Assembly: GCF_048262615.1 (NCBI RefSeq)
Contig: NZ_JBLXFB010000018.1
Coordinates: 2,631 to 66,630, forward strand
Direction: 5' to 3'
Source of the DNA: Antarctobacter sp.
GTDB taxonomy: Bacteria > Pseudomonadota > Alphaproteobacteria > Rhodobacterales > Rhodobacteraceae
Length of the DNA stretch: 64,000 bases
The position numbers and the translations under genes are program-made. A model generated the notes under the pieces. The model did not search any database and was not told the origin of the DNA. It saw only the letters and a list, made by a program, of their open reading frames with translations. Of the stretch, positions 1 through 16,569 are shown piece by piece (position 1 is the stretch's first letter; every line of letters begins with the position of its first letter).

Positions 1-272
1 ACAGCTTCGCCATTGAGCGCGACGGCGCGGGCGATCATCGCCATGGCTTGCCGGGTCAGGAGGTCGGTGCCGTCAACGTCCGCCATGGCAAAGCCGCCTT
101 CCCAGAGGGAGACACAGCTTTGCACCGTGGCGGTCAGTTCGGCCACGCCGCGCCGCCCGCTGATAAAGCTGTCCCGCGCCGCCATGACCTGGGCGGTATA
201 GCCTGCGCCGCTGGACCGTTCCTCTAGCGGGGTGTCGATCGGGCGCAGTTTGGTTTTCAGCCATCCGAACAT
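1..272 (-). CDS. Phage portal protein, N-terminal part (runs off the left edge)
   Basis: Manual translation from ATG at 272 (not in the ORF track): MFGWLKTKLRPIDTPLEERSSGAGYTAQVMAARDSFISGRRGVAELTATVQSCVSLWEGGFAMADV... It starts 4 nt after the protease stop. Portal identity rests on resemblance and context. Confidence 0.7.
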   Translation of the reverse strand, partial: MFGWLKTKLRPIDTPLEERSSGAGYTAQVMAARDSFISGRRGVAELTATVQSCVSLWEGGFAMADVDGTDLLTRQAMAMIARAVALNGEA

Positions 273-276
273 GGTG

Positions 277-855
277 TCACCTCCACCGGGACAGGTTGTT
301 GTAGGCCAGATTGATCCGGCGCACCTCGGGGGTGGTCGCCCAGTCCCGCGCCTCGATCTGCGCCGCCGGATAGGCCGGTTTGGTGACGGCGCTGATTTCG
401 ATCAGGTCCGCCGCCCGGATGGTGCGCAGGACCGCCTTGCCGCGTTCCTCCACCGTCTCGCCACCGGGCCGAACCCGGAACCCCGGCGACAGGCCACGCA
501 CCAGACCGGCGGCATGGGCGGACAGGAAGTCGCGGACGTAGGACACCTGCGCCATGTCGGCGCTGATCTGCGCGTCAACGGTCAGGGCGTCGTCCGTTTC
601 CGACAGGGTCAGCGTGCCTGCGGAGCGGGACGCCAAGGGCTTGTTGAAGTCATGGCCGGCCAGAAAGTGAATATCCTCTCCGCCGTCGATGCGATCCGCA
701 AAGGCGCGGGCGGCGATCACCTCGCGGCGTTCACCTCGCCTGCCGATGCCCTCCGCCAGTACGGTTTCCCGGCCATAAGGGAAGGTTGCCCGAAGGCGGG
801 TTTCCCCGCCCTCGGTGCGCAGCTCAAGGCTGCCGATATGCGCGCCCCAGAGCAT
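277..855 (-). CDS. HK97-family prohead protease
   Basis: 192 aa; LAGHDFNKPLA (His) and GLSPGFRV (Ser) motifs plus EISAVTKPAYP; TGATG overlap with the capsid stop at 855. Confidence 0.9.
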   Translation of the reverse strand: MLWGAHIGSLELRTEGGETRLRATFPYGRETVLAEGIGRRGERREVIAARAFADRIDGGEDIHFLAGHDFNKPLASRSAGTLTLSETDDALTVDAQISADMAQVSYVRDFLSAHAAGLVRGLSPGFRVRPGGETVEERGKAVLRTIRAADLIEISAVTKPAYPAAQIEARDWATTPEVRRINLAYNNLSRWR

Positions 856-2123
856 CAGGCTTCCAGTTCCAGGCCGGTCAGCAGTTCAAGCTGGGCCGGG
901 CGCGCAACGGTCACGTCCATGGTCGCAAGAGCGGTGATCCGCAGCCCGCCGGACTGGGCATCGCTGTAGGGATCGCGGATCATGTCCACCGCGCCCCATG
1001 CGCCGATAAAGATCGGGGCCACGCCGCCCGCGGCTGTGGTCAGCAGCGCCGAAGTTGCTGAAGGCGTGCCGAACGGCGCGGCAATGGCGTTGTTGGTCAT
1101 AGCAATATTGCCCGAAGGCAGGTTCTTGACCAAGCGATCCCATTCCGACACGGCGGTGCCGCTGATCAGAACGCTGTCGAGGTAGTCCCAAAGCTCGGGC
1201 CGGATCAGTGCCCGCACCGCGTCCGGCGAACCGGCAGCATTGGCGGTCATAAACCGGGTGACAGCCGAGCGGAACGCGCCCCAGCTCGCCAGCGCATCCA
1301 CCGCCGTGGACGTGATGCCGTAGGTTGCCGCGCCGGTGATGACGCCGAGCGGCTGGCCGTTGGCCCCGGTGCCGAGGAACGCCGCCTGATCCATCGCCGC
1401 GCCCATGGCGCCGCTCATGTCGCGCCGCACCGCCTGTTCCAGCGCAGCGCCGGACTGTTTCAGGGTCTTGCGGGTGATGCGCATCTGAATGCCGAGGTTG
1501 TGGTCCGGTGACATGGCCCGGTCGGTCGTGGCGTAAGTGGTCGGGCCTGCCACGTTGGCCGTCTCGCCATCCGCCCAACCTGCGGTGACGGCCGAGGTGG
1601 TCACCGGCCATTCCACAGCGCCCGCGTCGATGCTGATCATCTGCGCCCCCATGCGCGCGGCCACGCTGTCGGGAAACAGCCGGTCGATGATCGGGCGGGT
1701 CTGGGTCGGGTTGGGCGTGCCGCTGGCGACAGTCTCACCGGCGCGGGTTTCAAGCGCCTGCCACGGCACCGGAATGCCCCGGAAGCCGCCTGCGCTGCGC
1801 AGCTCGGTCACAATTTCGGCGGTCTGGCCGTCCAGTTGCCGCCCTTCGTCCAGGGCAAGCGCGACCTGGCGCAGCTCAAACCCCGCCATGAGGTCGGCCC
1901 ATTCCTGGGCAGAACGGGTTTCCAGTTCGGACCCGGCATCACGGCGTTCGGTGTCCTCCGCGATCAGGGATGCGCGGTAGCGGGTTTCGTTGGAACGGTA
2001 TTCCCGATCCAGCGTGTCCATCTGACGGATTTCATCGTCAGATGGGGTTTCCTTGCCTGCCAGTTCGGCAAGGCTTTGGCGGATTTCCGACTGACGCCGG
2101 GCGATCTTCACACTTTCGAGCAT
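855..2123 (-). CDS. HK97-fold major capsid protein
   Basis: Start refined to ATG 2123 (MLESVKIARRQSE, SD AGAAAGGA), 422 aa. Coiled-coil delta-domain-like N-terminus, then capsid-like segments (LEQAVRRDMSGAMGAAMDQAAFLGTGANGQPLG; DPYSDAQSGGLRITA). Confidence 0.9.
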   Translation of the reverse strand: MLESVKIARRQSEIRQSLAELAGKETPSDDEIRQMDTLDREYRSNETRYRASLIAEDTERRDAGSELETRSAQEWADLMAGFELRQVALALDEGRQLDGQTAEIVTELRSAGGFRGIPVPWQALETRAGETVASGTPNPTQTRPIIDRLFPDSVAARMGAQMISIDAGAVEWPVTTSAVTAGWADGETANVAGPTTYATTDRAMSPDHNLGIQMRITRKTLKQSGAALEQAVRRDMSGAMGAAMDQAAFLGTGANGQPLGVITGAATYGITSTAVDALASWGAFRSAVTRFMTANAAGSPDAVRALIRPELWDYLDSVLISGTAVSEWDRLVKNLPSGNIAMTNNAIAAPFGTPSATSALLTTAAGGVAPIFIGAWGAVDMIRDPYSDAQSGGLRITALATMDVTVARPAQLELLTGLELEA

Positions 2124-2464
2124 GTGTTTTCCTTTCTGCTCTTGAGGTTCTTGTCGGGACGCTCGAGCGCCTCGACTGCTTGCCGCCAGTCTTGGCGGTC
2201 TTCTCGGGGCGGCGGGTGGCCGCACTCGATCCGCGTCTTGCGCGTGTGGCAGGACGGGCAAAGGGCTTGCAGGTTCGGTGGGCTGTACGACAGCTCGGGA
2301 TGTGTCCTGACCGGTTTGATATGGTCCACCTCGAGCCGTCCGCCGCAGCCACAGGACTTGCAGCGGTAGCGGTCACGCTCGAGGATCTCGACGCGGAGGA
2401 CTTTCCAACGCTTGGTGCGCGTGACCTTCTGAGAGTGCCGCTGGTGCTCTTTTCTCAAACCCAC
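2108..2464 (-). CDS. HNH endonuclease (gp74-like terminase cofactor)
   Basis: GTG start at 2464 overlaps the terL stop; CxxC (CKSC), EVDHIKP, NLQALCPSCHTRKT; 118 aa. Confidence 0.9.
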   Translation of the reverse strand: MGLRKEHQRHSQKVTRTKRWKVLRVEILERDRYRCKSCGCGGRLEVDHIKPVRTHPELSYSPPNLQALCPSCHTRKTRIECGHPPPREDRQDWRQAVEALERPDKNLKSRKENTCSKV

Positions 2465-4170
2465 AGCATCCTCGCTTTCTTCTGAGGTAGAGCCGCAATC
2501 CGCGCGCCTTGAGCGACTGCCAGTACCGACGCCGCAGCCGCATCTATCCGGCCCGTAGACCGCGCTTTGGCAATTTTGATGTTGTTGGCGGGGTCGCGCA
2601 GGCACACGGTGTCAGCGAATGCCGAGCGCAGCAGCAGCGACGGTTTGGCCATTACCATCCCGTCAAAAGCAGCGCGCCGAAACCGTTCGGCGTCTTCGCC
2701 ACCGTCCCTAAAGCCTTGGCCTCTGAACACCAGCGGCGCGCGGATACCGGCCCGACTGATCGCCTCGCCCAGCTCGGCTTGTTTGTAACGGTCCATGGTG
2801 ATCGCGGCGATCTGCTCATCTTGGACGTGCCGCATTACCTCGACCAACCAAGGTGCTACCGGAACTGTTTTGTCGCCCAGAGTGGTCAACTCGCCACGCT
2901 CTTCCATCTCGACGTAGCGCCCAGCCACGCCATCCGCTTGCCCCCGGTCAAGTAGGGTAGGGGCGCTTGGGAAGGTGCCGAGGGCTTCAAGGCGGCCGGT
3001 CGCAGGCCAGTAAAACGCGGCGGCGGTCATCGACGCCGAACCTCCAAGGTCGATCCCAATGACGCATCCCCCTTCGCGGGGTGGAAGGTCGGACGCTTCG
3101 CAGGCAAGCCATTCGTCCAGTGTGATCAGCATGTCTCGAGCTTCGCCAGAAACTCGTTCATTGCGGTTGTAGAGGCGGAAAGTAGAGAGGCTGGACCCGC
3201 CGCGCGCAATTGCCCGCGCGGCTTGTGCCTCGAGCCAATCAAGCGAGCCGCCAATGCCATGAGGTGCGCCGGGATTGGCAATCAAAAGACTGTCGGGATC
3301 GTCGGCCGGAAGGCCGGGGGGCGGGCGGTGTTCCTGCACATAGGTGCCGGGTGCCGGATCATCGATCCAGCGTGAAAAGGGGTGCGTGTCGTCGGCCGCC
3401 GAGGTGCTGATCAAGAAGGCCCGGCCGCCGCGTTTGCCAAGGCCAGACAAAAGCGCATGTTCCAGCTCGTCGCCGCGATCCAGCGCCCAGTGACCGCGCT
3501 CGTCCAAGATCACGATAGTTGGCGCGCCGCCGAGGGCGGATTTGCCGTCCGCAGCGATAACGCGCAGGATGTGGCCTCCTCCATCGCCCTCGTACTCGAT
3601 TTCAAGCCGGGGTTGCCTGCGGAAGATCAGTTGGCTTTGAATGTCTTTCGGAAGCGATTGGCAGAAGCCCGCCACAAAGTCCCAGATGATCCGGCCCTGA
3701 TCTCGCGTGCGCGCCGCAGCGATGATCTCGCGGCGGGGTTGGTGATCCCAGATCCCGAGGAGGCCGCCGAGGCCAAGGCCAGCGGTGATCGCGGACTTTC
3801 CGTTCCCTCGCCCGATGCTGAGAACGGCAGTTGCGGTTTCTTGCGCCAATGCTCCTTCGATGAACTGGCACTGGAAGGGGGCCAGCGAAACAGGCTTGCC
3901 CGAATTCGGCCCCTCGGGGATGCAAAGCCTATGCATGAATTGCATAGCTCTTTCGGCGGGGGCCGTTCCGTCCAGTTCCAAGCCCTGCGCGAAAAGAGAA
4001 AACTTGGTAGTACGGTTTCCCATATGGCCGGGAATTGCGGCATTGGGACCATCTCGAAATAGGCAGGCCTGCCGGGGATCCGATTGTAAGACGGCAGGTG
4101 AGAGCTTGGGCTCGATCTTCGATCCGTCTGCCTTTCTCCACTGCCTGTCTTTGTTTGCCGCCGTGTTCAT
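2455..4170 (-). CDS. terL: Phage terminase large subunit
   Basis: Walker A GRGNGKS, Walker B IVILDE, nuclease motifs IGIDLGGS and RIDAAAA. Start placed at ATG 4170 (SD AGAGGA). The frame is open from 4269, and later starts (3981 TTG, 3945 ATG) are possible. Confidence 0.88.
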   Translation of the reverse strand: MNTAANKDRQWRKADGSKIEPKLSPAVLQSDPRQACLFRDGPNAAIPGHMGNRTTKFSLFAQGLELDGTAPAERAMQFMHRLCIPEGPNSGKPVSLAPFQCQFIEGALAQETATAVLSIGRGNGKSAITAGLGLGGLLGIWDHQPRREIIAAARTRDQGRIIWDFVAGFCQSLPKDIQSQLIFRRQPRLEIEYEGDGGGHILRVIAADGKSALGGAPTIVILDERGHWALDRGDELEHALLSGLGKRGGRAFLISTSAADDTHPFSRWIDDPAPGTYVQEHRPPPGLPADDPDSLLIANPGAPHGIGGSLDWLEAQAARAIARGGSSLSTFRLYNRNERVSGEARDMLITLDEWLACEASDLPPREGGCVIGIDLGGSASMTAAAFYWPATGRLEALGTFPSAPTLLDRGQADGVAGRYVEMEERGELTTLGDKTVPVAPWLVEVMRHVQDEQIAAITMDRYKQAELGEAISRAGIRAPLVFRGQGFRDGGEDAERFRRAAFDGMVMAKPSLLLRSAFADTVCLRDPANNIKIAKARSTGRIDAAAASVLAVAQGARIAALPQKKARMLWV

Positions 4171-4248
4171 CGTGTTTCCTCTTGCGCGTATTTCTTCGTT
4201 TAACCGTCGTTCAATTCTCACCTGCTCAATGGTGAGGTTCGGAGCGAA

Positions 4249-4298
4249 GGGCATAGGACGACTGCCCACAGCGCAAAGCTGTGGCAGTCCCTACGCCC
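4249..4298. other. Long imperfect hairpin in the non-coding gap upstream of terL
   Basis: gggcatagg-ac-gactgcc-c-acagc / loop gcaaa / gctgt-ggcagtc-cctacgccc; second hairpin ccctacg-aaagcg-cgtaggg at 4513-4532. Confidence 0.55.
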
Positions 4299-4545
4299 TC
4301 CGCGTGCAAGTCCTGCTCAACGGAGCCGGTCCATCGCTTTGGGCCCGTCCGGTCACGCGCTCTTGCCGGTCGGTTAGTTGCTGCTTGCGACACCTGAGCG
4401 CGGTGCCGGGGATCGGGCCTCAACCTTTCGGACTGCCCTGGGCAATGTGATCCCTGCCCGTGTTTGCCCTTAGCTCCTGTTGGCGCACCGTGGTTTCCCC
4501 GACACCGACAGGCCCTACGAAAGCGCGTAGGGGCGCTATTGTTGA

Positions 4546-4776
4546 TCAGTCCTCGATCACCTCACCCATGCTGAACGCTTCGGTGCCCAGTTCGGACACC
4601 AGTCGCCGCATGATCTGTTGTTGCTTGGAAGACGGACGCCACGACGCACGTTTGCCGTGCTTCGCGATTGATCGCACAAAGCCCTTGAGCCATTCGTCTG
4701 AGCCGTCCGCCATTATGCGCCGCAGAACGATGGGCCAGCGGTGGTTCAGAATCTCATCAAGCTCTTGGTCGGTCAT
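4546..4776 (-). CDS. Small basic hypothetical protein of the phage-like element
   Basis: 76 aa; ATGA overlap with the connector stop at 4773-4776 (translational coupling). Confidence 0.75.
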   Translation of the reverse strand: MTDQELDEILNHRWPIVLRRIMADGSDEWLKGFVRSIAKHGKRASWRPSSKQQQIMRRLVSELGTEAFSMGEVIED

Positions 4777-5321
4777 ACCTGAACCCCGCGATACCTTGCG
4801 CCGATCCGGGCCATATGCGGCGATGTGGTGAGGCTTTTGGCGTCCATCGGGGAGCGACCGTCATAGTGCAGCGCCGCCTGATCCATGAGGGCTTGGGCAA
4901 GATCGGGCGGGATGTCCGCCGTGTCTGTGCCAAACCCCGCTTCGTAGATCACAACCATTTCGGCGGGGGCAGGCGGTGCAAGATGGGTTTCCCAATGCAC
5001 CAGCGGGCGAATGCCGCCGACAACTGAAAACGCGTCAAAGGCGGTTCCATCAATTCGGATTGCCACGCTTGTGACGTCGATCAGCGGACCAATGGGAAGC
5101 CTCAAGCACCCCTCCAGCACGGGCCTAACAATGGTCACAGTGATGGTCTGCGTCAGCAGAGCGATCTGTGCAAAGTGCTCAATCTCGGCACAAGCTGCAT
5201 GGCCGATGTTCGTGATTGCCGCGTCTTCTTCGGTGCCGACCACTCGCAGGTGAAGTTTCACGCTATCAAGGTCAAACGGCAGGTCAGTGCCGTCCCGGCT
5301 GCGGTCCACAAGCATTCTCAT
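4773..5321 (-). CDS. Head-tail connector protein (gp6 / phiE125 gp8-like)
   Basis: LDSVKLHLRVVGTEED...AEIEHFAQIALLTQT and YEAGFG...IPPDLAQAL...AALHYDGR pattern; ATGA overlap with the upstream ORF. Confidence 0.85.
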   Translation of the reverse strand: MRMLVDRSRDGTDLPFDLDSVKLHLRVVGTEEDAAITNIGHAACAEIEHFAQIALLTQTITVTIVRPVLEGCLRLPIGPLIDVTSVAIRIDGTAFDAFSVVGGIRPLVHWETHLAPPAPAEMVVIYEAGFGTDTADIPPDLAQALMDQAALHYDGRSPMDAKSLTTSPHMARIGARYRGVQV

Positions 5322-5848
5322 GCCGCCAACTCCACTTCGCTGATGTGTCGGAAGAATGCCGCCTGATCTCCGTCGCTCATGGCTTCAAAGGCCGCAGCTG
5401 CATAGCATTTCAGCTCAGCCCGGCTGGCAAACGCCGCCCAAGACCGGGCCTCAACCATCTGGCCAAGGAACGCAGGGATGGGCGCGCCAGCGGCATGGAT
5501 CGCGGCGCGCGCGGTCAGTTCCGCATGATCAGGATGCAGGGACCGCAGCGCGGCATAGGCCAGCGCGGCGCGTTCCTCAGTCGAAAGGCGCGCGGCGGCA
5601 ACATCGCTGAACCCGGACCATGCCTCAGCGCCGCCCAAGGTCAGGGTGTATCCCAGCATCTTGGACAGGCGTTTGTGTGCCGGAGCCATGAATTTGGCTA
5701 GGCTGGAACGCTTTTTGCGGTTGGACAAAGCGGGAATTTCCGCTTTGTTTTCAGAGGAGATGTTGGCGCCGGTTAGACAACTTATGCAGTTGTTATTGTT
5801 GGATTCTGAGACAACCCTACGGGCTGCCACTTCTTCCCAAAAGAGCAC
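5318..5848 (-). CDS. Hypothetical protein of the phage-like element (start uncertain, may be near 5689)
   Basis: Helical Ala-rich C-terminal ~125 aa; ATGA-coupled to the connector gene. Confidence 0.6.
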   Translation of the reverse strand: MLFWEEVAARRVVSESNNNNCISCLTGANISSENKAEIPALSNRKKRSSLAKFMAPAHKRLSKMLGYTLTLGGAEAWSGFSDVAAARLSTEERAALAYAALRSLHPDHAELTARAAIHAAGAPIPAFLGQMVEARSWAAFASRAELKCYAAAAFEAMSDGDQAAFFRHISEVELAA

Positions 5849-6168
5849 GACGCGGCCGAGATCACCAATCTCTCGATGGCCTGCGCCATGTGAAAACGCC
5901 CGAGAATAATTGAAACCCTTGGCGCAGCCTTCAGCGTCGGGCCGATGGTATGTCGCGACCGCGCGGGCGCTGTCACCTTGCTACGCTGACGGCCATGTCG
6001 GATTCGGTAATCCTGACCGGATCAATGCGCCTTCGGGGGACCAAAACGCAACGTCGACACCGCCGCGATACAATTGGCCCGGCGGGTCGGAATCCAACCC
6101 GGCAGCGCCCCGATCAGGGCGAGGTTCTGTTCGTGAAAACCGGCCTCTCGGACGGCTGTCCGCTTTCA

Positions 6169-6792
6169 TCACCGCAAGGGTGTCTTGGCGATCCAGTCGA
6201 GTACCTCGGTCAGGTGCGCCGTCATGGCTGCGTCAAAGGCCGCAACGACCATCTCTCTGGAGGTGTCAGGGGCCGTCGCCGAACTGTCGAAACTGCGCGA
6301 TGAGACCACCCGACCGTCGCTGTCGCTCAGCAAACTCATCGTGCTCCGGATCACAATTGTCACGCTTTCCGGGCCGACCTCTGCCTGAAACGCCCGCAAA
6401 TCGGTCATCAGCACATAGTCGGGCGACGGCCCCGATCCTGCGGCGGTCACAAGGGCAAAGCGTCCGGAATTCGCCAGCGACCGGACCAGCAACAGTTGAA
6501 CGTGTTCCGTGGCGTCATTGATCCAGCGCGCATCGGGCAGCGACTCGATCTTGAGCGGGGTCGGTTTGACCACGATGCGGTCGCTTGCAAAGGCCCCGGT
6601 GGCGGAGGGCATCGCAACCTCCAGATAGCGGCGGCTTTGCCGGGCGGACACCGTGCCTGCGGGCAGGGGGCTAAGCTCAAAGGTGTCCAGCGGTTTTGAC
6701 GCGGTCTGAATGCTCGAAATGGCAGAGCATCCGGCCATCGCCAGCAGGCTGAGCCCCAGCGCCGTCGAGCGAAGTGTCACAAAAAACGCCAT
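6169..6792 (-). CDS. ABC-type transport auxiliary lipoprotein (PqiC-like)
   Basis: Lipobox LAMAG-C; last gene of the MlaE-MlaF-MlaD operon; ARW...P-type segment (DARWINDATEHVQLLLVRSL) and VLMTDLRAFQ. Confidence 0.85.
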   Translation of the reverse strand: MAFFVTLRSTALGLSLLAMAGCSAISSIQTASKPLDTFELSPLPAGTVSARQSRRYLEVAMPSATGAFASDRIVVKPTPLKIESLPDARWINDATEHVQLLLVRSLANSGRFALVTAAGSGPSPDYVLMTDLRAFQAEVGPESVTIVIRSTMSLLSDSDGRVVSSRSFDSSATAPDTSREMVVAAFDAAMTAHLTEVLDWIAKTPLR

Positions 6793-6798
6793 AACCGA

Positions 6799-8541
6799 TT
6801 ATCTCCTGAACTCAGGCACGTTGTTGCCGAAAAAGAATCGCGCGGGATCGCGTTCCATCTTTTTGGCCAATTGCTCCAGACGGTTGACCAACTGCTGCGC
6901 CTCGCGCGCAAATTTGGTGAATTCCGGCAGCCCGGTTTGTGCAAAGGCCCGGATGGGCGGTGTGGTGGTGGCAACGGTTGTATCGATGTTCTCGACCACT
7001 TCCAACGCCCGCGCCATGATTTTGCGCAAATCGGCGGTGATCGCGGGCAGGTCGTCGGACAGTTTGGCCGTTGTCGTCTTGAACTGGTCGGCGGCGGCGC
7101 GGACGTCAGAGATGGCGGGGCCAAGGTCGGTCGAAATCAGCTTGTCGGCGCTGGCGAATGTGCCCTGCGCGATGTCCAGCGTTTCTGTTGTGGCGCTCAG
7201 GGCCACGTCCAGATTGGCCAGTGTCAGGTTGGCGTTTTTCAGCGTCTCGGTGGCGGCCTTCAACGTGGTTTCGCCGGTTTCGACCAGCGGGTCGAGACGC
7301 TTGGTAAATCCGGTGACGTCTTTCGACACCTGATCGACAACCGAGGTGACAGAGGCAACGGCCTTTTGAACATCGGTCAGGATGGTGGGGACGTCCTCTT
7401 TCAGGATCTTGTCCACGCCAGAGATGGCCTGCTGCACCGATGTCAGGGTCGTGCGGGCATCTTTCAGAAGGGCGGTTCCCTCGCCGTCGATCATCCCCTG
7501 AAAGTTGATCGACGCGCTTTCGATGGCGGCGAGCGACTTGCGCCCCTCCGCCAGCGTCAGGTCCAGAGAGGCGATTGTTTTCTCCAACTCGGCAAACCGT
7601 TTTGTCGCCGCATCGGCGGTCCCGCCGAATTGCGTCAGCACCTTGTCAAGTTGCTGGCTCAGGTCCTTGGTCGCGGTTTCGAAGGACAGGACGGCGGCGG
7701 ACATTTGGTCTGCGATCTTCGGCACCTGTTTCTGGACGAAGGTATCCACCTCGGTGATGGTGGCCTCGGCGGCGGTGAACGCCCCTGTGGCCGATTTCAT
7801 CGTCGGCTGAACCTCGGCAAGGGCGACCTTGGCGACATCCAATGTCTCATCGACCTTGCCCAGCGTTGTCTGGATCGACGTGCTGATGCTGTCCAGACGC
7901 CCGGTGAATTTTGATATTTCGGCTGTACCTTCGGAGACGGTGCGGGAAATCTCGGAGAAATCCGAAAGCGCGGTTTCCAACTTCCCCGACGCGCTTTCTA
8001 GGTTCTTGAGCAGCGAAGCGACAGAGGACTGGTTTTCGGACCCCAGAAAGGTCCGGATTTCCTTGATCGCGGCCAGCGCTTCGGCCACCAGATCGGGCGA
8101 ATCCTCGGTCAAGGCCTGCACCACAGAACGTTCGGTGGGGATCAGCGGGACGGACGAGGGATCGACAGAGGTGCGCAGCAACAGCGCCTCCGGGCTGCCG
8201 CCGCTGAGGGCGACAAAGCCGACCCCGGTGACACCTTGCGAGTTCAGTTGCGCCTTGGTGTCGGTCTTGATCGGCGTGTCGGCGGCCACCTCGATTCGGA
8301 CCCGCACCTTGGCCGGGTCGTCCTCGTCCAGCGCCAGACTGACCACCTTGCCGACCGAAAGCCCGTTGTAGCGCACGTCCGCCGCCATCCCCAGACCGGA
8401 CACGTTTTCGAACAGAACCTCGTACAAGGTGTACTGGCGGTCGATCTCGACCTTCGCGAACCAGACCAGCAGCCCCAGGAGCCCGAGAACCCCCAGCACC
8501 GACACGGCCCCGATCAAAACGAAGTTTGCCTTGGTTTCCAT
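6799..8541 (-). CDS. MCE/MlaD-family protein with long helical extension
   Basis: METKANFVLIG N-terminal TM; MCE domain (VSGLGMAADVRYNGLSVGKV...QGVTGVGFVALSGG); ~430 aa Ala/Thr-rich helical region; C-terminal ERDPARFFFG. Confidence 0.9.
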   Translation of the reverse strand: METKANFVLIGAVSVLGVLGLLGLLVWFAKVEIDRQYTLYEVLFENVSGLGMAADVRYNGLSVGKVVSLALDEDDPAKVRVRIEVAADTPIKTDTKAQLNSQGVTGVGFVALSGGSPEALLLRTSVDPSSVPLIPTERSVVQALTEDSPDLVAEALAAIKEIRTFLGSENQSSVASLLKNLESASGKLETALSDFSEISRTVSEGTAEISKFTGRLDSISTSIQTTLGKVDETLDVAKVALAEVQPTMKSATGAFTAAEATITEVDTFVQKQVPKIADQMSAAVLSFETATKDLSQQLDKVLTQFGGTADAATKRFAELEKTIASLDLTLAEGRKSLAAIESASINFQGMIDGEGTALLKDARTTLTSVQQAISGVDKILKEDVPTILTDVQKAVASVTSVVDQVSKDVTGFTKRLDPLVETGETTLKAATETLKNANLTLANLDVALSATTETLDIAQGTFASADKLISTDLGPAISDVRAAADQFKTTTAKLSDDLPAITADLRKIMARALEVVENIDTTVATTTPPIRAFAQTGLPEFTKFAREAQQLVNRLEQLAKKMERDPARFFFGNNVPEFRR

Positions 8542-8547
8542 TCGAAC

Positions 8548-9327
8548 TCAGCCCTCGGTTCCTAAACCGGCCGCCCGCGCGCGGGGGCCATGGAAATACT
8601 CATGCACCCAGGGGTGATCCACCTTCAACATGTCGCGCATCGTTCCGGTGACAAATACTTTCTTTTCCGACAGAACGGCAATCCGGTCGCAGATTGCATG
8701 CAAACTGTCCAGATCGTGCGTCACCATAAAGACGGTCAGGCCCATCGTCGTTTGCAGTTTCTTGATCAGGGCGTCAAAGTCTGCGGCGCCAATCGGGTCC
8801 AGACCGGCGGTGGGCTCGTCCAGAAACACGATTTCCGGGTCCAGCGCCAGCGCGCGGGCCAGCCCGGCGCGCTTGCGCATCCCGCCCGACAGTTCCGAAG
8901 GGTATTTGTCGCAGGCGATTGGCGGCAATCCGACCATCGAGATTTTCAGTTCGGCCAGCGCGCGCCGGGTTTCGGCCGACAGGTCGGTGTGTTCGCGCAT
9001 CGGAACCTCGACGTTTTCGCGCACCGTCAGCGAAGAAAACAGCGCCCCGTCCTGAAACATCACGCCCCATCGCTGCTCGACGGCGCGGCGGGTTTCGTCC
9101 GGCGCATCGGTGAGGTTGGTGCCAAAAACGGTCACAGTGCCGGCCTGTGGCCGCCGCAGACCGGCGATGGCGCGCAACAGAACGGATTTCCCGGTGCCGG
9201 AGCCGCCGACAATGCCCAGCACCTCGCCCCGATAGACGTCAAGGTCCAGCCCGTCGTGAACCACGTGATCGCCGAACTGGTTGCGCAGTCCGCGGACCTG
9301 GATGATGGCGTCGCGCGCGTCGGTCAT
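8548..9327 (-). CDS. MlaF-like ABC ATPase
   Basis: Start ATG 9327 (TGATG overlap with mlaE stop); GGSGTGKS, LSGGMRKRAGLARAL, FLDEPTAGLDP, VTHD. Confidence 0.93.
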   Translation of the reverse strand: MTDARDAIIQVRGLRNQFGDHVVHDGLDLDVYRGEVLGIVGGSGTGKSVLLRAIAGLRRPQAGTVTVFGTNLTDAPDETRRAVEQRWGVMFQDGALFSSLTVRENVEVPMREHTDLSAETRRALAELKISMVGLPPIACDKYPSELSGGMRKRAGLARALALDPEIVFLDEPTAGLDPIGAADFDALIKKLQTTMGLTVFMVTHDLDSLHAICDRIAVLSEKKVFVTGTMRDMLKVDHPWVHEYFHGPRARAAGLGTEG

Positions 9328-10406
9328 CAGATGCCGATCACGGCGAAGAGGATTGAGAACATGGCATCCGCCACGATGACCAGAAAGATCGACAAGACAA
9401 CAGAGGTCGAGGTCAATCGGCCCAAGGATTCGGCGTCGCCGCCGACCTTCATGCCCTCGTAACATCCTACGATTGCGATGATAACGGCGAAGAACGGGGC
9501 CTTTATCAGGCCGACCGCGTAGTGCCAGACATCGACGGAATCGTACAGTCGGGTCTGGAACATGCCGGGCGACACATCCAGTTCGATCCACGACATCATC
9601 GCGCCGCCCAGCAGGCCCATGACGTCCGCCACGAACCCCAGCAATGGCAGCATGATCACCAGCGCCAGAACACGCGGCAGGATCAGGATCTCGATCGGAT
9701 CGAGGCCAAAGGTCCGCATCGCGTCGATCTCTTCGCGCATCTTCATCGACCCGATGGCCGCAGTGAACGCAGCCCCCGACCGGCCCGCGACAATGATGGC
9801 TGTCAGAAGAATGCCCAGTTCGCGCAGGACAGAGATGGCGATCAGATCGACGACAAACACCTCGGCCCCGAACTGCCGCAACTGGACCGCGCCCTGAAAC
9901 GCCATGACAACGCCGATCAGGAAGGCCATCAACGAGACGATGGGCACCGCGTTCAGCCCGACTTCTTGCATGTGGTGAACCAGCGACGTCACCCGCAGCC
10001 GTCGGGGATGGATCGCGACGTAGCCAAGCCGCGCCAGCACCGCGCCCAGAAAGCCAAGCATTTCGATCACGCCAAGAATGCCGAACCATGTCTTCTGGCC
10101 GATCACTTCCAACCAGTCGAAAAATCCATGACGCGGCTTTGCCGTGGGGGCTTGATCCGGGATGCTCTGTCGGACGACCTCCAGTAGGTCGGCGTGATTC
10201 TGCGATGCGCCCGCGATCTCACACCGTCCGCCCCGGCCCTGAACAGCATTTTGCGTGGTCACAAGCAGCCAGGCCCCGGCGGTGTCCATGGCCTCGACCT
10301 GCGACAGATCCAGCGTGATATCGGCCTCAGTCGCAGGCGCAGTCACCTGCGCCCGGACTTCTTCAAGCCTTGCAATCACCAACCGACCTGACAGCGCGAT
10401 TTTCAT
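9327..10406 (-). CDS. MlaE-family permease with N-terminal STAS (MlaB-like) domain
   Basis: LDLSQVEAMDTAGAWLL (STAS); RELGILLTAIIVAGRSGAAFTAAIGSMKMREEIDAM (MlaE signature). Confidence 0.93.
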   Translation of the reverse strand: MKIALSGRLVIARLEEVRAQVTAPATEADITLDLSQVEAMDTAGAWLLVTTQNAVQGRGGRCEIAGASQNHADLLEVVRQSIPDQAPTAKPRHGFFDWLEVIGQKTWFGILGVIEMLGFLGAVLARLGYVAIHPRRLRVTSLVHHMQEVGLNAVPIVSLMAFLIGVVMAFQGAVQLRQFGAEVFVVDLIAISVLRELGILLTAIIVAGRSGAAFTAAIGSMKMREEIDAMRTFGLDPIEILILPRVLALVIMLPLLGFVADVMGLLGGAMMSWIELDVSPGMFQTRLYDSVDVWHYAVGLIKAPFFAVIIAIVGCYEGMKVGGDAESLGRLTSTSVVLSIFLVIVADAMFSILFAVIGI

Positions 10407-10536: not shown

Positions 10537-13500
10537 TCACAAGGCGAAATCATCCGCTGTCAGCCCGGTGACATTCGCCACCAGAATTTCGGCGTCCGGG
10601 GCCAGATCGGTGTCCGTGTTGATCTGGACAATGCTCGATCCGTCTGTGGTCTCGATCACCCGGACCTGATTTGCTCCGGTGAAGGGGCCGCTTTCGACAA
10701 ACGTCAAGGTTCCCGCAGCCATGCCCGACAGGTCGATCACATCGACCAATACCTCGAAATCCAGAATCCGGTCGCGGGTCGCCCCGGTGGCGGTTTCGGT
10801 TGTGGATGCAAAGACAAAGACATCCACCTCTTGCCCTCCGGTCAAGAAATCCTGCCCGAGCCCCCCAGTCAGACGGTCCGCCCCGGCGTCGCCGCGCAAA
10901 ACATCACTGCCCGCTCCGCCCTCGATCGTGTCAGAGCCTTCGCGACCAATCAGCGTGTCGCTGCCGTTCCCGCCGCGCAGCACATTGCCCAGATGGTTGC
11001 CGCGTAGAATATCACCAAAGTCTGACCCGGTGAGGTTTTCGACCGACAGGTAACTGTCCGCGCGGGCGTCCCCGGTGTTCACGGTGGCATCCACCAGATC
11101 GGCGATCAGCCCGGCGCTGGCTGTGGCATAGGTCGCGGTATCGGACCCTGCGCCGCCGATCAGGCGGTCGCCGCCCGCGTCGCCGGACAGGGTGTCGTCC
11201 CCGTCATAGCCGATCAAGGTGTCGTCCCCGGCTAGCCCGGTCAGGACGTTGGCGCGGGCATCGCCGCGCAGGCTGTCGCGATAGGCGCTGCCGGTCAGAT
11301 TCTCGACATCCAGATAGCTGTCCCCCAGCGCCTCACCGAGGTTCAGCGAAGGGGTGCCAAGGTCCGCGATCACTCCGGCGGTGGCGGTGACGTAAGAGGC
11401 GGTATCCAGACCCGTGGCCCCGATCAACCTGTCCCGACCGGGGCCACCGATCAGGACATCGTCTCCGGCCCGCCCCACTAGCGTGTCGTCGCCGGCCTGA
11501 CCGGACAAGAGATTGGCCGCGTCGTCCCCCCGCAGGCTGTCGCCAAAGCGCGAGCCTGTCAGGTTTTCGATCCCCAGATAGGTGTCGCCGCGCGCCTCGC
11601 CAAGGTTCAGACCCGCGTCGCCAAGATCGGCGATCACGCCGCCCTCAGAGGTTTCATAGGTGGCGGCGTCCAGCCCGGTATTCCCGATCAGCCAATCCGC
11701 CCCCGCGCCGCCGTTCAGAATGTCGTTGCCGCCCAGACCGTTCAGGATGTCATTGCCATCCCCGGCGTCCAGTCGGTTGGCCATGCCATTGCCAAACAGC
11801 CTGTCGTTGGCGTCACCGCTGCGCAGGTGTTCGATGCTTAGCAGGGTATCGACCCCGTGCCCGGTGTCCTGCGGTCCGGTTATGCTCAGGTCCACATTTA
11901 TGGCATCCGCGCCGGTGTAAGAGGCGGTATCTTCGCCTGCGCCGCCATCCAGCGTGTCGTCACCCGTGCCGCCATCCAGCACATCGTCGCCGTCGCCCGC
12001 CGCGATCAGGTCATCGCCCGCGCCGCCGTTCATTGTATCGTCGCCGCCGCCGGTCTGCGTCACGATGCGCGGCGGCGTGCCGCCGCCCCCAGTCGTTCCG
12101 GGCGACAGCGCCGCGCCGCCGGTGTCGTCCAGCATCAGACCAGAGACCGGGTCGGCGGTCCAATGCGACACCAGCCCCGGTTCGGTCGCCGGATCGTCGA
12201 GGGGGGCAAAGGCCGTGTCGGCGACCTCTGCGCCACTCAGCGCGCGGTCCCAGACGCGGACTTCGCTGACCTCTCCCTGTAGCACCTGATTGGGATCGAA
12301 GCCGCCATTGACCTGATCCTGCTCCTGACCCACCACAAAGGACCCACCCGAAGTCAGGCCCCCAAAAGTGGAAAACACCGGGGCGCGGTAGCTGTAGACG
12401 CTCTGACCGTCGACGTAGAGCGTAAAGCCCGCCTTGTCGCCGGGCGCCACCGAGCCCGGAACCGTGGCAACCGACAGGGTGATCCGGTGCGGCTGGGTGT
12501 CGAACAGCAGGGCGGTGGGCACATTGGTCACGTAAAGCCGGTCATTCAGCCAGATTTCCAGCCCGTTGCCGCCGCGGTTTCCAAAGATCACCAACTCATT
12601 GATGCTGCCCGGAACCGCGTATGAGACAAAAGGGCTGTGCAGCGCGCCAAAGGCCTCTGTCGCGCGGAACATCAGGTCTACCGTAAAGGACCCGCCGGGC
12701 ATGTCGTCATAGCCGTTCAGGCCCAGCATCTGGTCCCGCGTTGCGCCCTCGTTCAGCCGAAAGGCCGGGACATCGCGGGAGTCCAGCAGCCTGTCGTTGC
12801 CGTCGCCCCCCGACAGGATATCATTGCCGCCGTGACCGATCAGCAGGTCGTCCCCGGCGTCGCCGCTTAGCTGGTTGTCCAGATGGTCGCCCACAAGACT
12901 GTCGTCGGACAAAGACCCGGTCAGGTTCTCGATCCCGTCCAGCGCATAGGAATAGGCCGTGCCGGTGGCCAGATCCCGAAATACGGCCAGCCCGTCGCCC
13001 AGGTTGACCGACGCCTGACCAAGCGTTTGCTCAGGCTGCCAGTTGGCCGTGCCGTCGGACAGTGCGCCGCTCTGGTTCGGGCCGAAACTCGCCCTGTCGA
13101 TCCCGGCACCGCCGTGCAGCACGCCGCCGCCCAGCCCGACAACCAGCAGGTCGTTGCCGTTGCCGCCGCGCAGCGTGTCGACGCCGTCCCCGGCGAACAG
13201 GATGTCATTGCCCGCGCCGCCGTCGATCAAATCGTCGCCGCCCTGACCGTTGATTTTGTTGCCCAGATGGTTGCCGGTCAGACTGTCTGCGGACGGGCTG
13301 CCGCGCAGGTTCTCAACGCCGCTGGTCACAATCGAGGCGGAGCCGCCTTGCGACAGGTCCAGCGTGACCGGCCCACTGGCACCAGAGAAATCCGCCGTGT
13401 CGGTGCCGGGGCCGCCGGACAGATGGATCTGAGAGAAGCCGTTGAAGACGCGCAGGATATCATCGCCTTTGCCGCCGGACAGCAGGTCGAGGCCACCGGC

Positions 13501-16500
13501 AAGGCCCGCGCGCTCGGCATTGCGCAGATCGTCATTGCCGTCACCGCCACGGATCGTGTCGTCGCTGCTGCTGCCGATGACGGTGTCGTCGCCGCCGTCA
13601 CCCGACAGCAGATCGCCGCCGGTCCCGGCATGGCCCAGAATGACGTCATTGCCGTTGCCGCCCATCAGGATGTTCGCGCGGTCGTTGCCCGCGATGAAAT
13701 CATCCTGCGCGCTGCCAGTGACCGCTTCAAAGCTCTGGATCTCCAGATAGGATTCCCCCAACAGCAGGTCATAGCTGCCGCCCGGCTGGCCAAGCTGCCG
13801 TTGCAGGCTGTCGAAGGCGGCATAATCCGTCTCATCCGGCAGATCGACCGTGCCGGGTTCATGCCCTTCGGCCACGCCTTTGTACCCCAGTTTGAGCGGG
13901 TCGCCGATATAGCTGCCGTCAAGATCGACGATCCACCCCAGATCGCTGCCGGAAAAATCCAGCCTGTCGGATTCCGTGCTGGTGGCGGGCTCTGTCCGGT
14001 CGCTGCCGTTCAGCAACAACCAGCCCTGTTGCGTGATCTCGACGGTATCGTCGCCGCTGCCGCCTTCGATATTGGTGCGGCCCTGCGCCGGGCGGAACAG
14101 GTCCTCCCCGGCACCGCCATCGTAAAAGTCATGGACGGTAAAGCTGTTTTGCGGATCGGTGGTGTCCCAGATCGGGCGAAAGTTGCGCGCTGTGCCGATG
14201 AACAGGTCGTCGCCCGCGCCACCATAGTAAAAGTCCTGACTGGCCGAACTGGCAAAGGTGTCATCGCCCTCCGCGCCAAAGATCTGAAACCCGCCTTGCG
14301 TCCTGTCGATGCCCGTCAGGGCACCCGCCGCGTCGAATTTCACGACAGAGCCTGCGGGGCCGTTGACATACAGGTGGTCTGGCAGCATCGCGTCGATCTC
14401 GGTCGCCGTCAGGCCAACAGAGGTCAGCGAGGGAAAGCCCGGAAACGTGCTGGCGAAATCCACGCCACCGTACCAGAGGCTGGTAAAGTTGCCGCGTTCG
14501 TTGATGAACAGATCATTCCCGGTCCCGGCGACAAACAGCTTGCGCCCGATGGTCGAGGGGTCCGTGGGGTCATAGTCCACGCCGGTCGCCACCAGCGTGT
14601 CATTGCCCGCATCCCCCAGCATCAGGTCGGTGCCCCTGCCGCTGATCAGGGAATCGTTGCCGCCCAATCCCCGCAACACGTCATTGGATGCGCGCCCGTC
14701 CAGCCGGTTTGCCCCGTCATCGCCCCACAGCCAGTCGGCGTTGTCGCTGCCTGTCAGGTTTTCGACATCGACATAAATGTCTTCGGACACAAAGGGTTGA
14801 CGCGCATCGCCCGGTGCCAGCAACGACGCGAAATGCGCGCTGCCCGCGTCGCCAAGGTATGATCCCACGTCGATTCCGCTGCCGCCGTAGATGCGGTCAC
14901 TCCCCGCGCCGCCCTCAAGGAAATCATCCCCGCTGCCGCCGTTCAGCGTGTCATCGCCGCCGCGCGCGGCGATATAGTCCATCAGCGCGTAGGCAGAGAT
15001 CGCCTCGGCGCTGTCGGTCCCGAACATGAAATCGCGCGCCGGAGCGTCGGGGACCGAGGGCAGCGAAAGACCGTCGCCTTCGGTTTCGCCATTTGCCGCG
15101 TCATAGAAATAGTCGAAGTCCGAGAGATGCAGCGTGCGGTCCTTGAAGATGAAATAGTCGACGTTGGTGATCACATCGGTGCCCAGATCGACCGCGCCGG
15201 GCGCGCCGTGGGTGTGGCTGACGATGATCGCGCCAGTGTCCGTGTCGCGCTTGATGCTGAATTCGCTGAGGTTGCCTTGCAGGATCACACCGTCGGTGTA
15301 GTCGATCCCGTTCACCGTATCGTCGCCGCCGCCGTCGATGATGTCGTCGCCCGCGCCGCCGATCAGGATGTCGTTGCCGAAGCCGCCGTTCAGAACGTCC
15401 CCGCCAAGCCCGCCAGACACCAGATCATCGCCGTCCCCGGCAAAGATCTGCGTCCCCCCGGCGATGATGCCATTGGGATCGCGGGTGTCGAAACCGTCAT
15501 AGCCGACCGCCAGATTGGCGTTGTCATCCAGAATGATGTTCACCGGATCGAAAGGCGTGATCAGTTTGCGTACCTCAATCGCCAGCCGCCCGGCATCGTC
15601 CCGCAGCCGCGCCATCAGGTCGGTCTCCAGCGCGATATCCAGACCGGGCACGGCAACGGTCAGGTCGCCGAACTCGGTCTCGAATCTGCTCAGGTCAAGA
15701 TCGACGCCGGTGAACAGGCTGAGCTCGGGGATCAGCTCGTCGATGGCCCCGGCCATCTTGTCGAACAGGTCGGTGATGCCCAGACTGTCCAGAATTGGAT
15801 CAAGGACGGGGTTGATGACCGCGTCGATCACCGCCTCGGCCGCGTCCAATGCCCATTGCACCGGCTCCAGCGCGTCGTTCAGCGCATTCATCGGCGTTTG
15901 CAGGAAATCCACCTTGCCCAGCATGTCGGTAAAGTCGCGCGCGACGCCCAGCAAGGTTGCGGCCACCGCAGGGAAATCGCCCAGCACCGCGTCGATCCGT
16001 GCGTCCATCGCGTTGATGTCATCGGTCAGATCGGCAATGCCAGAGGTGGCGGCGTTCAGGTTGCCGGCAATGACATTGGCCTCATCGGCGGCGTTTTGCA
16101 GCACAGAGGGGATATCATAGGCCGTCTCGATCGCCCCAGCCGCGTCGGCGATGCCGTTTTCCACCGCAGCCAGTTCAGAGACCGCAATCTCAAGCACGTC
16201 GCGGACGGTTTCCAGCCCGTCGATCATCGCATCGACGCGGTCCTTGAACGCGCCGAACTTGCTGTCCACGTCGATGCCGTTGGCCACGTCCTCGGCGCGT
16301 TCCTCGACCAGCGTGATGACCCGCTTGAGGATCGGCGCGACGCTCGACAGGGGCGGCCCGACCTTGGAGATCAGCGCCAGCGCATTCTTCAACCCCTGCG
16401 CAATGTCCTGAAGTTTTTCCGCGTCCTCGTCGATCTCTTCGAGAACCTCGAACACATCGCTGACCAGTTCCAGCGCATCAATCGCGCCTTCGACCGCGTC

Positions 16501-16569
16501 CAATGATGTCTGCGCCGCTTGTTTTGTGTCCTGAACAGTGTCGTCCAACAGGGAAAGTTGGCTTGGCAT
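10537..16569 (-). CDS. Large RTX (hemolysin-type Ca-binding) secreted protein with pentraxin/LamG domain
   Basis: 2010 aa; many GGxGxDxLx repeats; GQEQD pentraxin-like domain at about 12150-12770; serralysin-like T1SS C-terminus (...LTADDFAL); no Sec signal. Confidence 0.9.

Follow-up and report, generated by a model that had tools for sequence, protein, structure and literature searches.

A candidate tail-less, capsid-forming phage satellite in the 3′ end of tRNA-Glu in Rhodobacterales, with a conserved structured RNA upstream of terL

In the proteobacterial phage-inducible chromosomal islands that form capsids (cf-PICIs), the genes for the capsid, the protease, the portal, and the head connectors are followed by hnh-terS-terL; the terminase depends on the HNH protein, tail genes are absent, and the sequences are remote from those of all phages. 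These islands are reported to have arisen at least three times, with those of Proteobacteria as a single lineage whose packaging modules are 50–90% similar to that of EcCIEDL933 (bioRxiv 10.1101/2022.09.08.507074). The cfPICI model of SatelliteFinder has 11 core components, forbids tails and holins, and corresponds to elements with a median size of 14 kb, and the text of the SatelliteFinder paper names no alphaproteobacterial family (PMC10085698). In the papers cited here, the hosts reported for cf-PICIs are Enterobacteriaceae, Pasteurellaceae, a few other Proteobacteria, and Firmicutes. Here, we analyze a stretch of 64,000 nucleotides from Antarctobacter sp. (contig NZ_JBLXFB010000018.1, positions 2,631–66,630; the whole stretch is referred to as the window hereafter), in which positions 1–5836 are best explained as the distal 5.8 kb of an integrative element of about 9.6 kb that would occupy the 3′ end of a tRNA-Glu gene. 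We consider this element to be a capsid-forming, tail-less phage satellite that borrows the tails of a helper, with a probability of roughly 0.75. An initial annotation, made from the letters alone, had proposed a tail-hijacking, capsid-forming satellite, and the tail-less gene content, the size, and the synteny described below support that proposal. The hijacking itself is suggested by the gene content: because head and packaging genes are present and none for tail or lysis, spread by borrowed helper tails is most likely.

The element resembles EcCIEDL933, the prototype of the proteobacterial cf-PICIs, in several respects. Both have a tyrosine integrase and their own HK97-type capsid, protease, portal, head-tail connector, HNH endonuclease, and large terminase (TerL), and both lack tail and lysis genes. 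The capsid-protease-portal order, the distinctness from sequenced phages, and the occurrence of highly similar copies across host species are also shared. Four features set the element apart from EcCIEDL933, as judged by the published description. One is the host group: Alphaproteobacteria are not reported in the text of either cf-PICI paper. Another is the size, which is 9.4–10.4 kb as against 15.4 kb for EcCIEDL933 and the cfPICI median of 14 kb. The third is the arrangement: the integration/regulation module is located between the portal and the connectors rather than between terL and the capsid gene, and the HNH gene follows terL instead of preceding terS. The last is the gene content, in that no small terminase (TerS), primase/Rep, or PICI-type alpA is recognisable, head closure is optional, and a structured RNA precedes terL. 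The best reading is that the element represents a minimal, apparently undescribed cf-PICI-like lineage of Alphaproteobacteria. Since cf-PICIs are reported to have arisen more than once, this lineage is probably separate from the known ones. In the literature on Rhodobacterales, Roseobacter, and Alphaproteobacteria, we found no description of satellites or cf-PICIs of this sort. P4 and the marine virion-encapsidated integrative mobile elements (VEIMEs) are likewise small, integrate at tRNA genes, and need a helper to obtain particles, and P4 has a similar genome size (11.6 kb) and an RNA regulator (CI RNA), although the latter is a loose analogy. In contrast to the element, neither P4 nor the VEIMEs have genes for a capsid, portal, or large terminase; a lack of major capsid genes is explicitly reported for VEIMEs (PMC9618062).

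Ends, relatives, and mobility of the element

The right end of the element was located by three observations. One is that the DNA similarity of the window to its relatives breaks off at 5832–5842. Another is that a tRNA-Glu-type core, GAAGTGGCAGCCCGTAGGG, lies at 5815–5833, and a 15–19-bp repeat identical to this core flanks the relatives that adjoin tRNA-Glu. The last is that a 98.5%-identical copy of positions 1–5832 was found in four public runs (X1–X4), and the identity ended exactly at 5832 in all four, with a different flank beyond. In run X1, a 23.6-kb contig carries a second copy of 5815–5836 at 9,581 bp from the first. Since the near-identical copy is 9.58 kb long, only about 3.75 kb of the window element should lie beyond the left edge of the window, which leaves space for the rest of the portal gene, regulators, and an integrase, but none for a tail module. 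The intact tRNA-Glu gene and the second att copy probably lie there as well, judging from the near-identical copy and the relatives. Exact-protein look-ups of the window proteins, aimed at reading past the left edge, matched no record. The span of 1–5848 given in the initial annotation was thus slightly too long: the element ends at about 5833–5836, and the 176-aa 'hypothetical' open reading frame (ORF; 5318–5848) is over-extended, as the att core falls within its first codons, inside a spurious 5′ extension. The real gene encodes about 124 aa (5318–5692), and the other genes are in place. Just outside the att core, a terminator-like hairpin (6047–6067, minus strand) closes an Mla-like operon (6169–10089), so the head block would be insulated from host read-through.

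A capsid-based scan using one genome per species gave 73 loci, and a capsid scan of IMG/VR gave 80 loci. Among 8,000 candidates scored, 2,874 were capsid homologs, and the capsid identity across genera reached 95%. The order hyp-adaptor-orf76-gap-terL-(Hc1)-HNH-capsid-protease-portal, in which Hc1 denotes a head-closure gene, is kept in the 73 genome loci and the 80 IMG/VR loci, more than 150 in total, and this recurrence indicates that the arrangement is not due to chance. The initial annotation had proposed a family of Rhodobacterales. This holds for almost all of the 73 loci, but a few other alphaproteobacterial orders are also included, the hosts beyond Rhodobacterales being Hoeflea, Methyloceanibacter, Ponticaulis, Novosphingobium, and Geminicoccaceae. 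Thioclava sediminum, Aliiruegeria haliotis, and Roseovarius lutimaris are among the carriers. Some members carry the labels of Phycisphaerales or Oceanospirillaceae metagenome-assembled genomes; a mis-binned mobile element is a more likely explanation of these labels than a true host. As satellites, these loci would add a very large family, smaller in genome size than the described cf-PICIs, to the capsid-forming satellites, in the ecologically dominant marine Rhodobacterales. The IMG/VR contigs from the capsid scan, which are listed there as viral, are all ≤15.6 kb and mostly about 10 kb, and no terminal repeats were found in them. Censuses of marine viromes and of prophages would be corrected if these contigs were treated as satellites.

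The genome-locus elements are flanked by direct repeats of 15–58 bp, each corresponding to the 3′ end of a tRNA (Glu, Cys, Thr, Leu, or Phe). The repeats are 9.4–10.4 kb apart, the intact tRNA adjoins the tyrosine integrase gene, and the target tRNA varies with the integrase type. The best full-length model of the window copy is a Primorskyibacter locus (L025; tRNA-Glu, 9.86 kb, without Hc1). Elements have 13–14 genes, of which the head module is conserved and the regulation/integration module is mosaic. The region 3′ of the portal gene, which spans 1.2–3 kb up to the integrase gene adjoining the tRNA in the full-length relatives, contains in order a divergently oriented cI-like helix-turn-helix (HTH) repressor, 2–4 small proteins without a database match, a gene in the position of xis, and the integrase. 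In one subtype, the Xis-position gene matches phrog_66, a small Xis/AlpA-like HTH family (E=3e-5). A minus-strand 85-aa ORF before the integrase was rejected as the shadow of the 61-aa plus-strand Xis-position gene. The 195–286-aa proteins of the relatives have no database match, and in the variable genes that were screened with PADLOC, no defence cargo was detected. A full tail/lysis module directly beyond the portal, which the initial annotation had named as evidence against a satellite, is not there: the near-identical copy is too short, the relatives carry the repressor, small genes, and integrase in that place, and no tail or lysis gene was found among the ORFs of the complete relatives L001 and L156/L157, in which each ORF has another function or is unassigned. 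Likewise, none of the complete members has an ORF with a match to a family of tail, lysis, or defence proteins.

The element moves between genera, as the host flanks of the near-identical copies in X1–X4 do not map at ≥90% identity. An element that is 98.5% identical in hosts with non-aligning flanks is a candidate route for horizontal transfer between roseobacter genera, distinct from gene transfer agents (GTAs), plasmids, and phages. Furthermore, five Logan contigs (L156–L160; runs SRR31864772/76/79/83/89) are exact rotations, with 0 mismatches, of one 9,823-bp circle. This circle occurs in at least 5 runs of one study, shows the 30-nt k-mer overlap typical of an isolated cycle, joins the integrase gene directly to the first gene of the head block, and encodes a capsid that is 88% identical to that of the window. 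It is an excised circular or concatemeric form; no integrated copy of this member was seen among the 15 contigs carrying its capsid. Tandem arrays were also observed: L005 (6095–15870 and 15870–21266), at a tRNA-Cys-derived att site, and L069 each hold two diverged members about 11 kb apart, the TerL identities of the tandem members to that of the window being 58% and 30%.

All eight genes in the window are under purifying selection, with dN/dS values of 0.06–0.3 between the window and six relatives (about 0.07 for the capsid and 0.1–0.3 for the 124-aa protein). In the comparisons with L004, L013, and L002, the terL, HNH, and adaptor genes (window 2455–5832) have dS values of 1.1–1.7, about twice those of the capsid-protease-portal block (0.45–0.8; window 1–2452). 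This difference indicates an exchange of modules, which was apparently more recent for the head block, in a mosaic mode of evolution. These data bear on the idea that the locus is a decaying or cryptic prophage, of which the head module was left after the loss of the tail and lysis genes. Clusters of phage genes without a tail are often such remnants, and the window holds only a part of the element. Nevertheless, a unit of 9.4–10.4 kb with intact att repeats recurs in dozens of genera, all of its genes are under purifying selection, near-identical copies exist in different hosts and flanks, a free circle occurs, and neither the GenBank phage records nor the IMG/VR capsid scan provided a full-length phage relative. 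Prophage decay is thus largely refuted and extremely improbable.

Head and packaging genes compared with those of phages and gene transfer agents

Genes in 1–5848 were called with Pfam, PHROGs, and NCBIfam searches (Table 1), and the interrupted portal gene was identified through the N-termini of the relatives' portal proteins. In the order of transcription on the minus strand, they encode a hypothetical protein, a head-tail adaptor, and a 76-aa ORF, followed after the gap by TerL, HNH, the capsid, the protease, and the start of the portal. The gene identities and the order had been correctly read in the initial annotation, and so had the overlapping ATGA/TGATG joints, the successive junctions being ATGA, ATGA, a short GTG overlap, a 16-nt overlap, TGATG, and a 4-nt spacer. 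The element thus has its own capsid, prohead protease, and portal, and its own packaging enzymes TerL and HNH; together with the att core in the window, the tyrosine integrase and the tRNA-derived repeats of the relatives point to integration at att repeats.

Table 1 Features of the element in the window
Feature	Coordinates	Strand	Basis
att core at the element boundary, duplicated 3′ end of tRNA-Glu(TTC), GAAGTGGCAGCCCGTAGGG	5815..5836	-	Repeats of relatives and near-identical copy
First gene of the morphogenetic block, 124-aa all-helical protein	5318..5692	-	Homologs confined to this family
Head-tail adaptor, Ad1, gp6-like; phiE125 gp8 / TIGR02215 family	4773..5321	-	Pfam PF05135 (Phage_connect_1), phrog_442, TIGR02215
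orf76, 76-aa three-helix protein	4546..4776	-	Homologs confined to this family
Conserved structured RNA, ~240 nt, in the orf76-terL gap	4223..4465	-	Covariation, covariance model
terL, large terminase, 571 aa, HK97/cos type	2455..4170	-	Pfam TerL_ATPase and TerL_nuclease; phrog_9 5e-62
HNH endonuclease, ~118-120 aa, packaging-associated type of HK97-like cos phages	2108..2470	-	Pfam HNH 1e-10; phrog_144 3.5e-21
HK97-fold major capsid protein, 422 aa, N-terminal delta/scaffold region	855..2123	-	Pfam Phage_capsid residues 140-416; TIGR01554
Prohead serine protease, S78, HK97 type	277..855	-	Pfam Peptidase_S78 2e-21; phrog_80
Portal gene, first 90 codons, interrupted by the window edge	1..272	-	86% identity to the N-terminus of relatives' 358-aa Phage_portal proteins

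The initial annotation had also stated that homologs residing mainly inside complete phages would speak against a satellite, and it had suggested that capsid and terL searches be combined with a comparison of synteny. In 50,697 GenBank phage records, the best match of the capsid is ≤31% identical, that of TerL is ≤29% identical (HK97-like coliphages and cos phage 16-3), and no homolog of the adaptor was found by tblastn; the IMG/VR relatives, as mentioned above, are short contigs. While the relatives keep the order of the window, the closest phages (VP882 and CRP-821) have tails and the canonical order terS-terL-portal-capsid-connector-tail. The order had been called reshuffled. It does differ from those of canonical phages and GTAs, but the capsid-protease-portal part has already been published for proteobacterial cf-PICIs. 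HK97, mEp390, and Rhizobium phage 16-3 share with the element the TerL type (~28% identity), an HNH protein as its partner, an S78 protease, and a capsid of the HK97 fold that has a delta domain, whereas HK97-like cos phages are 36–60 kb in size and are organized as HNH-cos-terS-terL-portal-protease-capsid-connectors-tail-lysis. The locus therefore differs from an intact temperate HK97-like prophage, which would combine head, tail, and lysis genes in at least ~30 kb. Two small 'phage' records with TerL matches, Klebsiella phi17.2 (18 kb) and Ralstonia YO088_5 (12.9 kb), were considered as cf-PICIs and rejected, since both contain tape-measure genes and are ordinary fragments of prophages.

The adaptor provides a link to the GTA of the Rhodobacter capsulatus type (RcGTA). 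It matches phrog_442 (8e-16) and, over its full length, TIGR02215 (1.6e-15), and its sole significant match in PDB is the RcGTA adaptor Rcc01688 (PDB 6TBA; E=7.5e-5). RcGTA also has HK97-type head genes, and the hosts are shared. RcGTA-type GTAs are carried by nearly all Rhodobacterales and many other Alphaproteobacteria, and the distribution of RcGTA-like clusters resembles the host range of the element. These facts, together with the absence of adaptor homologs from the phage records, would fit a satellite with a non-phage helper, which obtains its tails and lysis functions from an RcGTA-type GTA. However, neither the capsid nor the relatives' head-closure protein has a sequence match to the RcGTA parts in PDB, TIGR02215 adaptors occur also in true phages such as phiE125, and co-occurrence is uninformative because GTAs are near-universal in the hosts. 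We regard a GTA helper as unlikely. The element itself is not an RcGTA-type cluster. RcGTA has the order terL-portal-protease-capsid-adaptor-tail at a fixed locus, possesses tails, lacks an integrase and att sites, is inherited vertically, and packages random host DNA. In contrast, the element is mobile and tail-less, has another gene order, an integrase, att repeats, and varied tRNA targets, and its own genome matches its size class.

The neck genes are relevant to another possibility, namely, that the element is an autonomous minimal virus or virus-like element without a helper tail, which either forms a tail-less HK97-fold particle with some other entry route or mobilises itself and uses the capsid for another purpose. 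No helper was found, the contigs that show the circle in several samples hold no integrated copy, and several genes have no assigned function. On the other hand, the element retains a dedicated adaptor for joining head to tail, and roughly a third of the relatives have a head-closure protein too; such proteins make sense only when a tail is attached, and neither a lysis gene nor a receptor-binding candidate is found among the 13–14 genes. An autonomous life without a helper tail is thus very unlikely, and we return to a satellite with borrowed tails as the preferred reading. The head-closure gene (Hc1, phrog_25; 113 aa) is located between terL and the HNH gene (e.g. L002:9319–9660). Since Hc1 is optional, completion of the neck may differ among subtypes or helpers. 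It was also observed that the HNH protein of the circular member (L157:1683–2498) has 271 aa and is a fusion of an HNH domain with a P-loop ATPase/kinase-like one. Over the full length, this protein matches phrog_4581, a family that bears the label 'terminase small subunit' (E=2e-43), while the 120-aa HNH protein of the window matches the N-terminal part only.

A conserved structured RNA upstream of terL

The gap between orf76 and terL is exactly 375 bp (4171–4545), as the initial annotation had stated. It is not empty, however, and contains a conserved structured RNA, which consists of a multi-helix 5′ domain, a 21-bp 3′ hairpin, and a subsequent near-invariant unpaired block. The nucleotide identity among relatives is 81–91% in the RNA region versus ~77% in the flanking genes. 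RNAalifold predicted 57 pairs from 25 sequences, 19 of which have compensatory double changes. The covariance model built for this RNA (R1) gave 265 bits on the window and matched at the same position in 32 of the 73 genome loci. The matches of the model include a much diverged second variant (44–60 bits across the whole model) and shortened forms (down to 37 bits). When 40 distinct sequences were aligned, 97.5% of the cells were paired, and 34 of the 54 pairs changed on both sides; as compared with these values, the controls with the partners slid by 1–3 columns gave at most 47% paired cells and at most 16 pairs changing on both sides, a very large margin for an alignment that was model-fitted and thereby favours the structure. 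The fold z-score of the RNA is −4.5. On the sense strand, G-U pairs are frequent and A-C mismatches are rare, so the structure is read as RNA, possibly as sense single-stranded DNA, and is not a DNA palindrome.

Three elements are common to all variants of the RNA. One is the central block. Another is the long 3′ hairpin, whose sequence differs while its pairing is kept, and which is flanked by two UGAGCAGG repeats. The last is the unpaired block, which lies ~70 nt before the start of terL. A scan against Rfam 15 gave no match at E≤1. In IMG/VR, the exact RNA motif was found in 38 contigs, all of which are ≤14 kb except one of 19.7 kb; gene content was inspected for those that are among the capsid-scan loci. 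Some relatives have a 113-aa ORF ('y113') in the gap, which we consider to be non-coding: its GC3 is low, its translation is junk-like and rich in Arg, Ala, Pro, and Gly, and the RNA model finds a match at this place.

Metatranscriptomes of hypersaline-lake and marine origin contain low-depth contigs that map at 80–95% identity on 4205–4439 (the RNA) and on 4652–4907 (orf76 and the 3′ end of the adaptor gene), a weak indication that relatives are transcribed in nature. An attempt to define the RNA ends from RNA-seq run X7 or from the metatranscriptome contigs failed, as only low-depth fragments were obtained. Our preferred guess is that the RNA acts as a cis-acting leader of the terL-portal operon, with the adjacent unpaired block as a candidate cos site. 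Because a replication protein is not recognisable, an RNA-primed origin is an alternative role. In a broader variant of the GTA-helper idea, which we judge to be improbable, the elements would be GTA satellites: their own heads, with a capacity of about 10 kb, would be docked on RcGTA-type tails by the GTA-family adaptor, and the late operon would be gated by a new ~240-nt RNA class, acting as a riboregulator, a processive antiterminator, or a packaging/replication RNA. If this were true, one 10-kb genome would hold both a new class of RNA and a 'selfish' passenger that rides on a domesticated virus.

Proposed life cycle, missing components, and surroundings

For a satellite with a phage helper, the following life cycle can be proposed. 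After derepression, Xis and Int would excise the element. In the circle, every gene except the repressor gene has the same orientation, and therefore a rightward transcript could extend from the early genes over attP and reach the head operon. The structured RNA would then act in cis on the late operon, for example, through antitermination, processing, or translational control. TerL and HNH would cut a cos site, probably located in the same intergenic region, and small procapsids would be filled; from the genome size, and in analogy to P4 and cf-PICIs, we predict the capsid to be T=4. The adaptor, together with the head-closure protein in the relatives that have one, would complete the neck. 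Finally, tails and lysis would be supplied by the helper, most likely a temperate HK97-like siphophage of the host.

Several points weigh against this interpretation. One is that no helper prophage was found anywhere in the 64-kb window, and that particles, tail acquisition, and transfer are predicted from the gene content; a circular assembly by itself is no proof of packaging. Another is that the remainder of the window copy lies outside the window, and its integrase and regulators are deduced from the length of the near-identical copy and from the relatives. In addition, the window copy carries the Ad1 adaptor gene but is without the head-closure gene, whose place would be at 2455–2470. The last concerns components that are expected of a cf-PICI. 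No TerS was detected by Pfam, PHROGs, and NCBIfam searches or by a PDB profile search and Foldseek on the two small proteins, and neither a primase/Rep nor a clear AlpA homolog, both of which are core cf-PICI components, was found in the relatives. The regulators found in the relatives are limited to the cI-like HTH repressor and the small Xis/AlpA-like HTH protein (phrog_66).

A divergent TerS may nevertheless be present. The 124-aa protein has no match in Pfam, PHROGs, NCBIfam, PADLOC, or PDB, and its AlphaFold2 (AF2) model is helical (predicted local distance difference test score, pLDDT, 77) with no Foldseek match in PDB or BFVD. Similarly, orf76 has no family match in Pfam, PHROGs, NCBIfam, or a PDB profile search; all of its 172 homologs are labelled 'hypothetical' and are found only within this family, and its AF2 model is a helical bundle (pLDDT 84) without a Foldseek match in PDB. 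The orf76 protein might bind DNA or RNA as a partner of the terminase or of the structured RNA, although it is a weak candidate for this role. The element would offer a compact system for studying the minimal gene set of a tail-stealing head, the action of HNH and TerL without a classical TerS, and the role of a covarying RNA upstream of terL.

Rightward of about 5850, the genes of the window are ordinary chromosomal ones; among them are those for the Mla-like transporter, TamA/B, efflux pumps, and an RTX protein of 2010 aa. The 2010-aa protein (10537–16569, minus strand) has 17 matches to RTX calcium-binding repeats and a pentraxin/laminin-G-like lectin domain, and from these domains we predict a large protein that is secreted and of the adhesin or toxin-like kind. 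Near this gene, at 20237–24720, lies an efflux pair of the AcrB/HlyD type.

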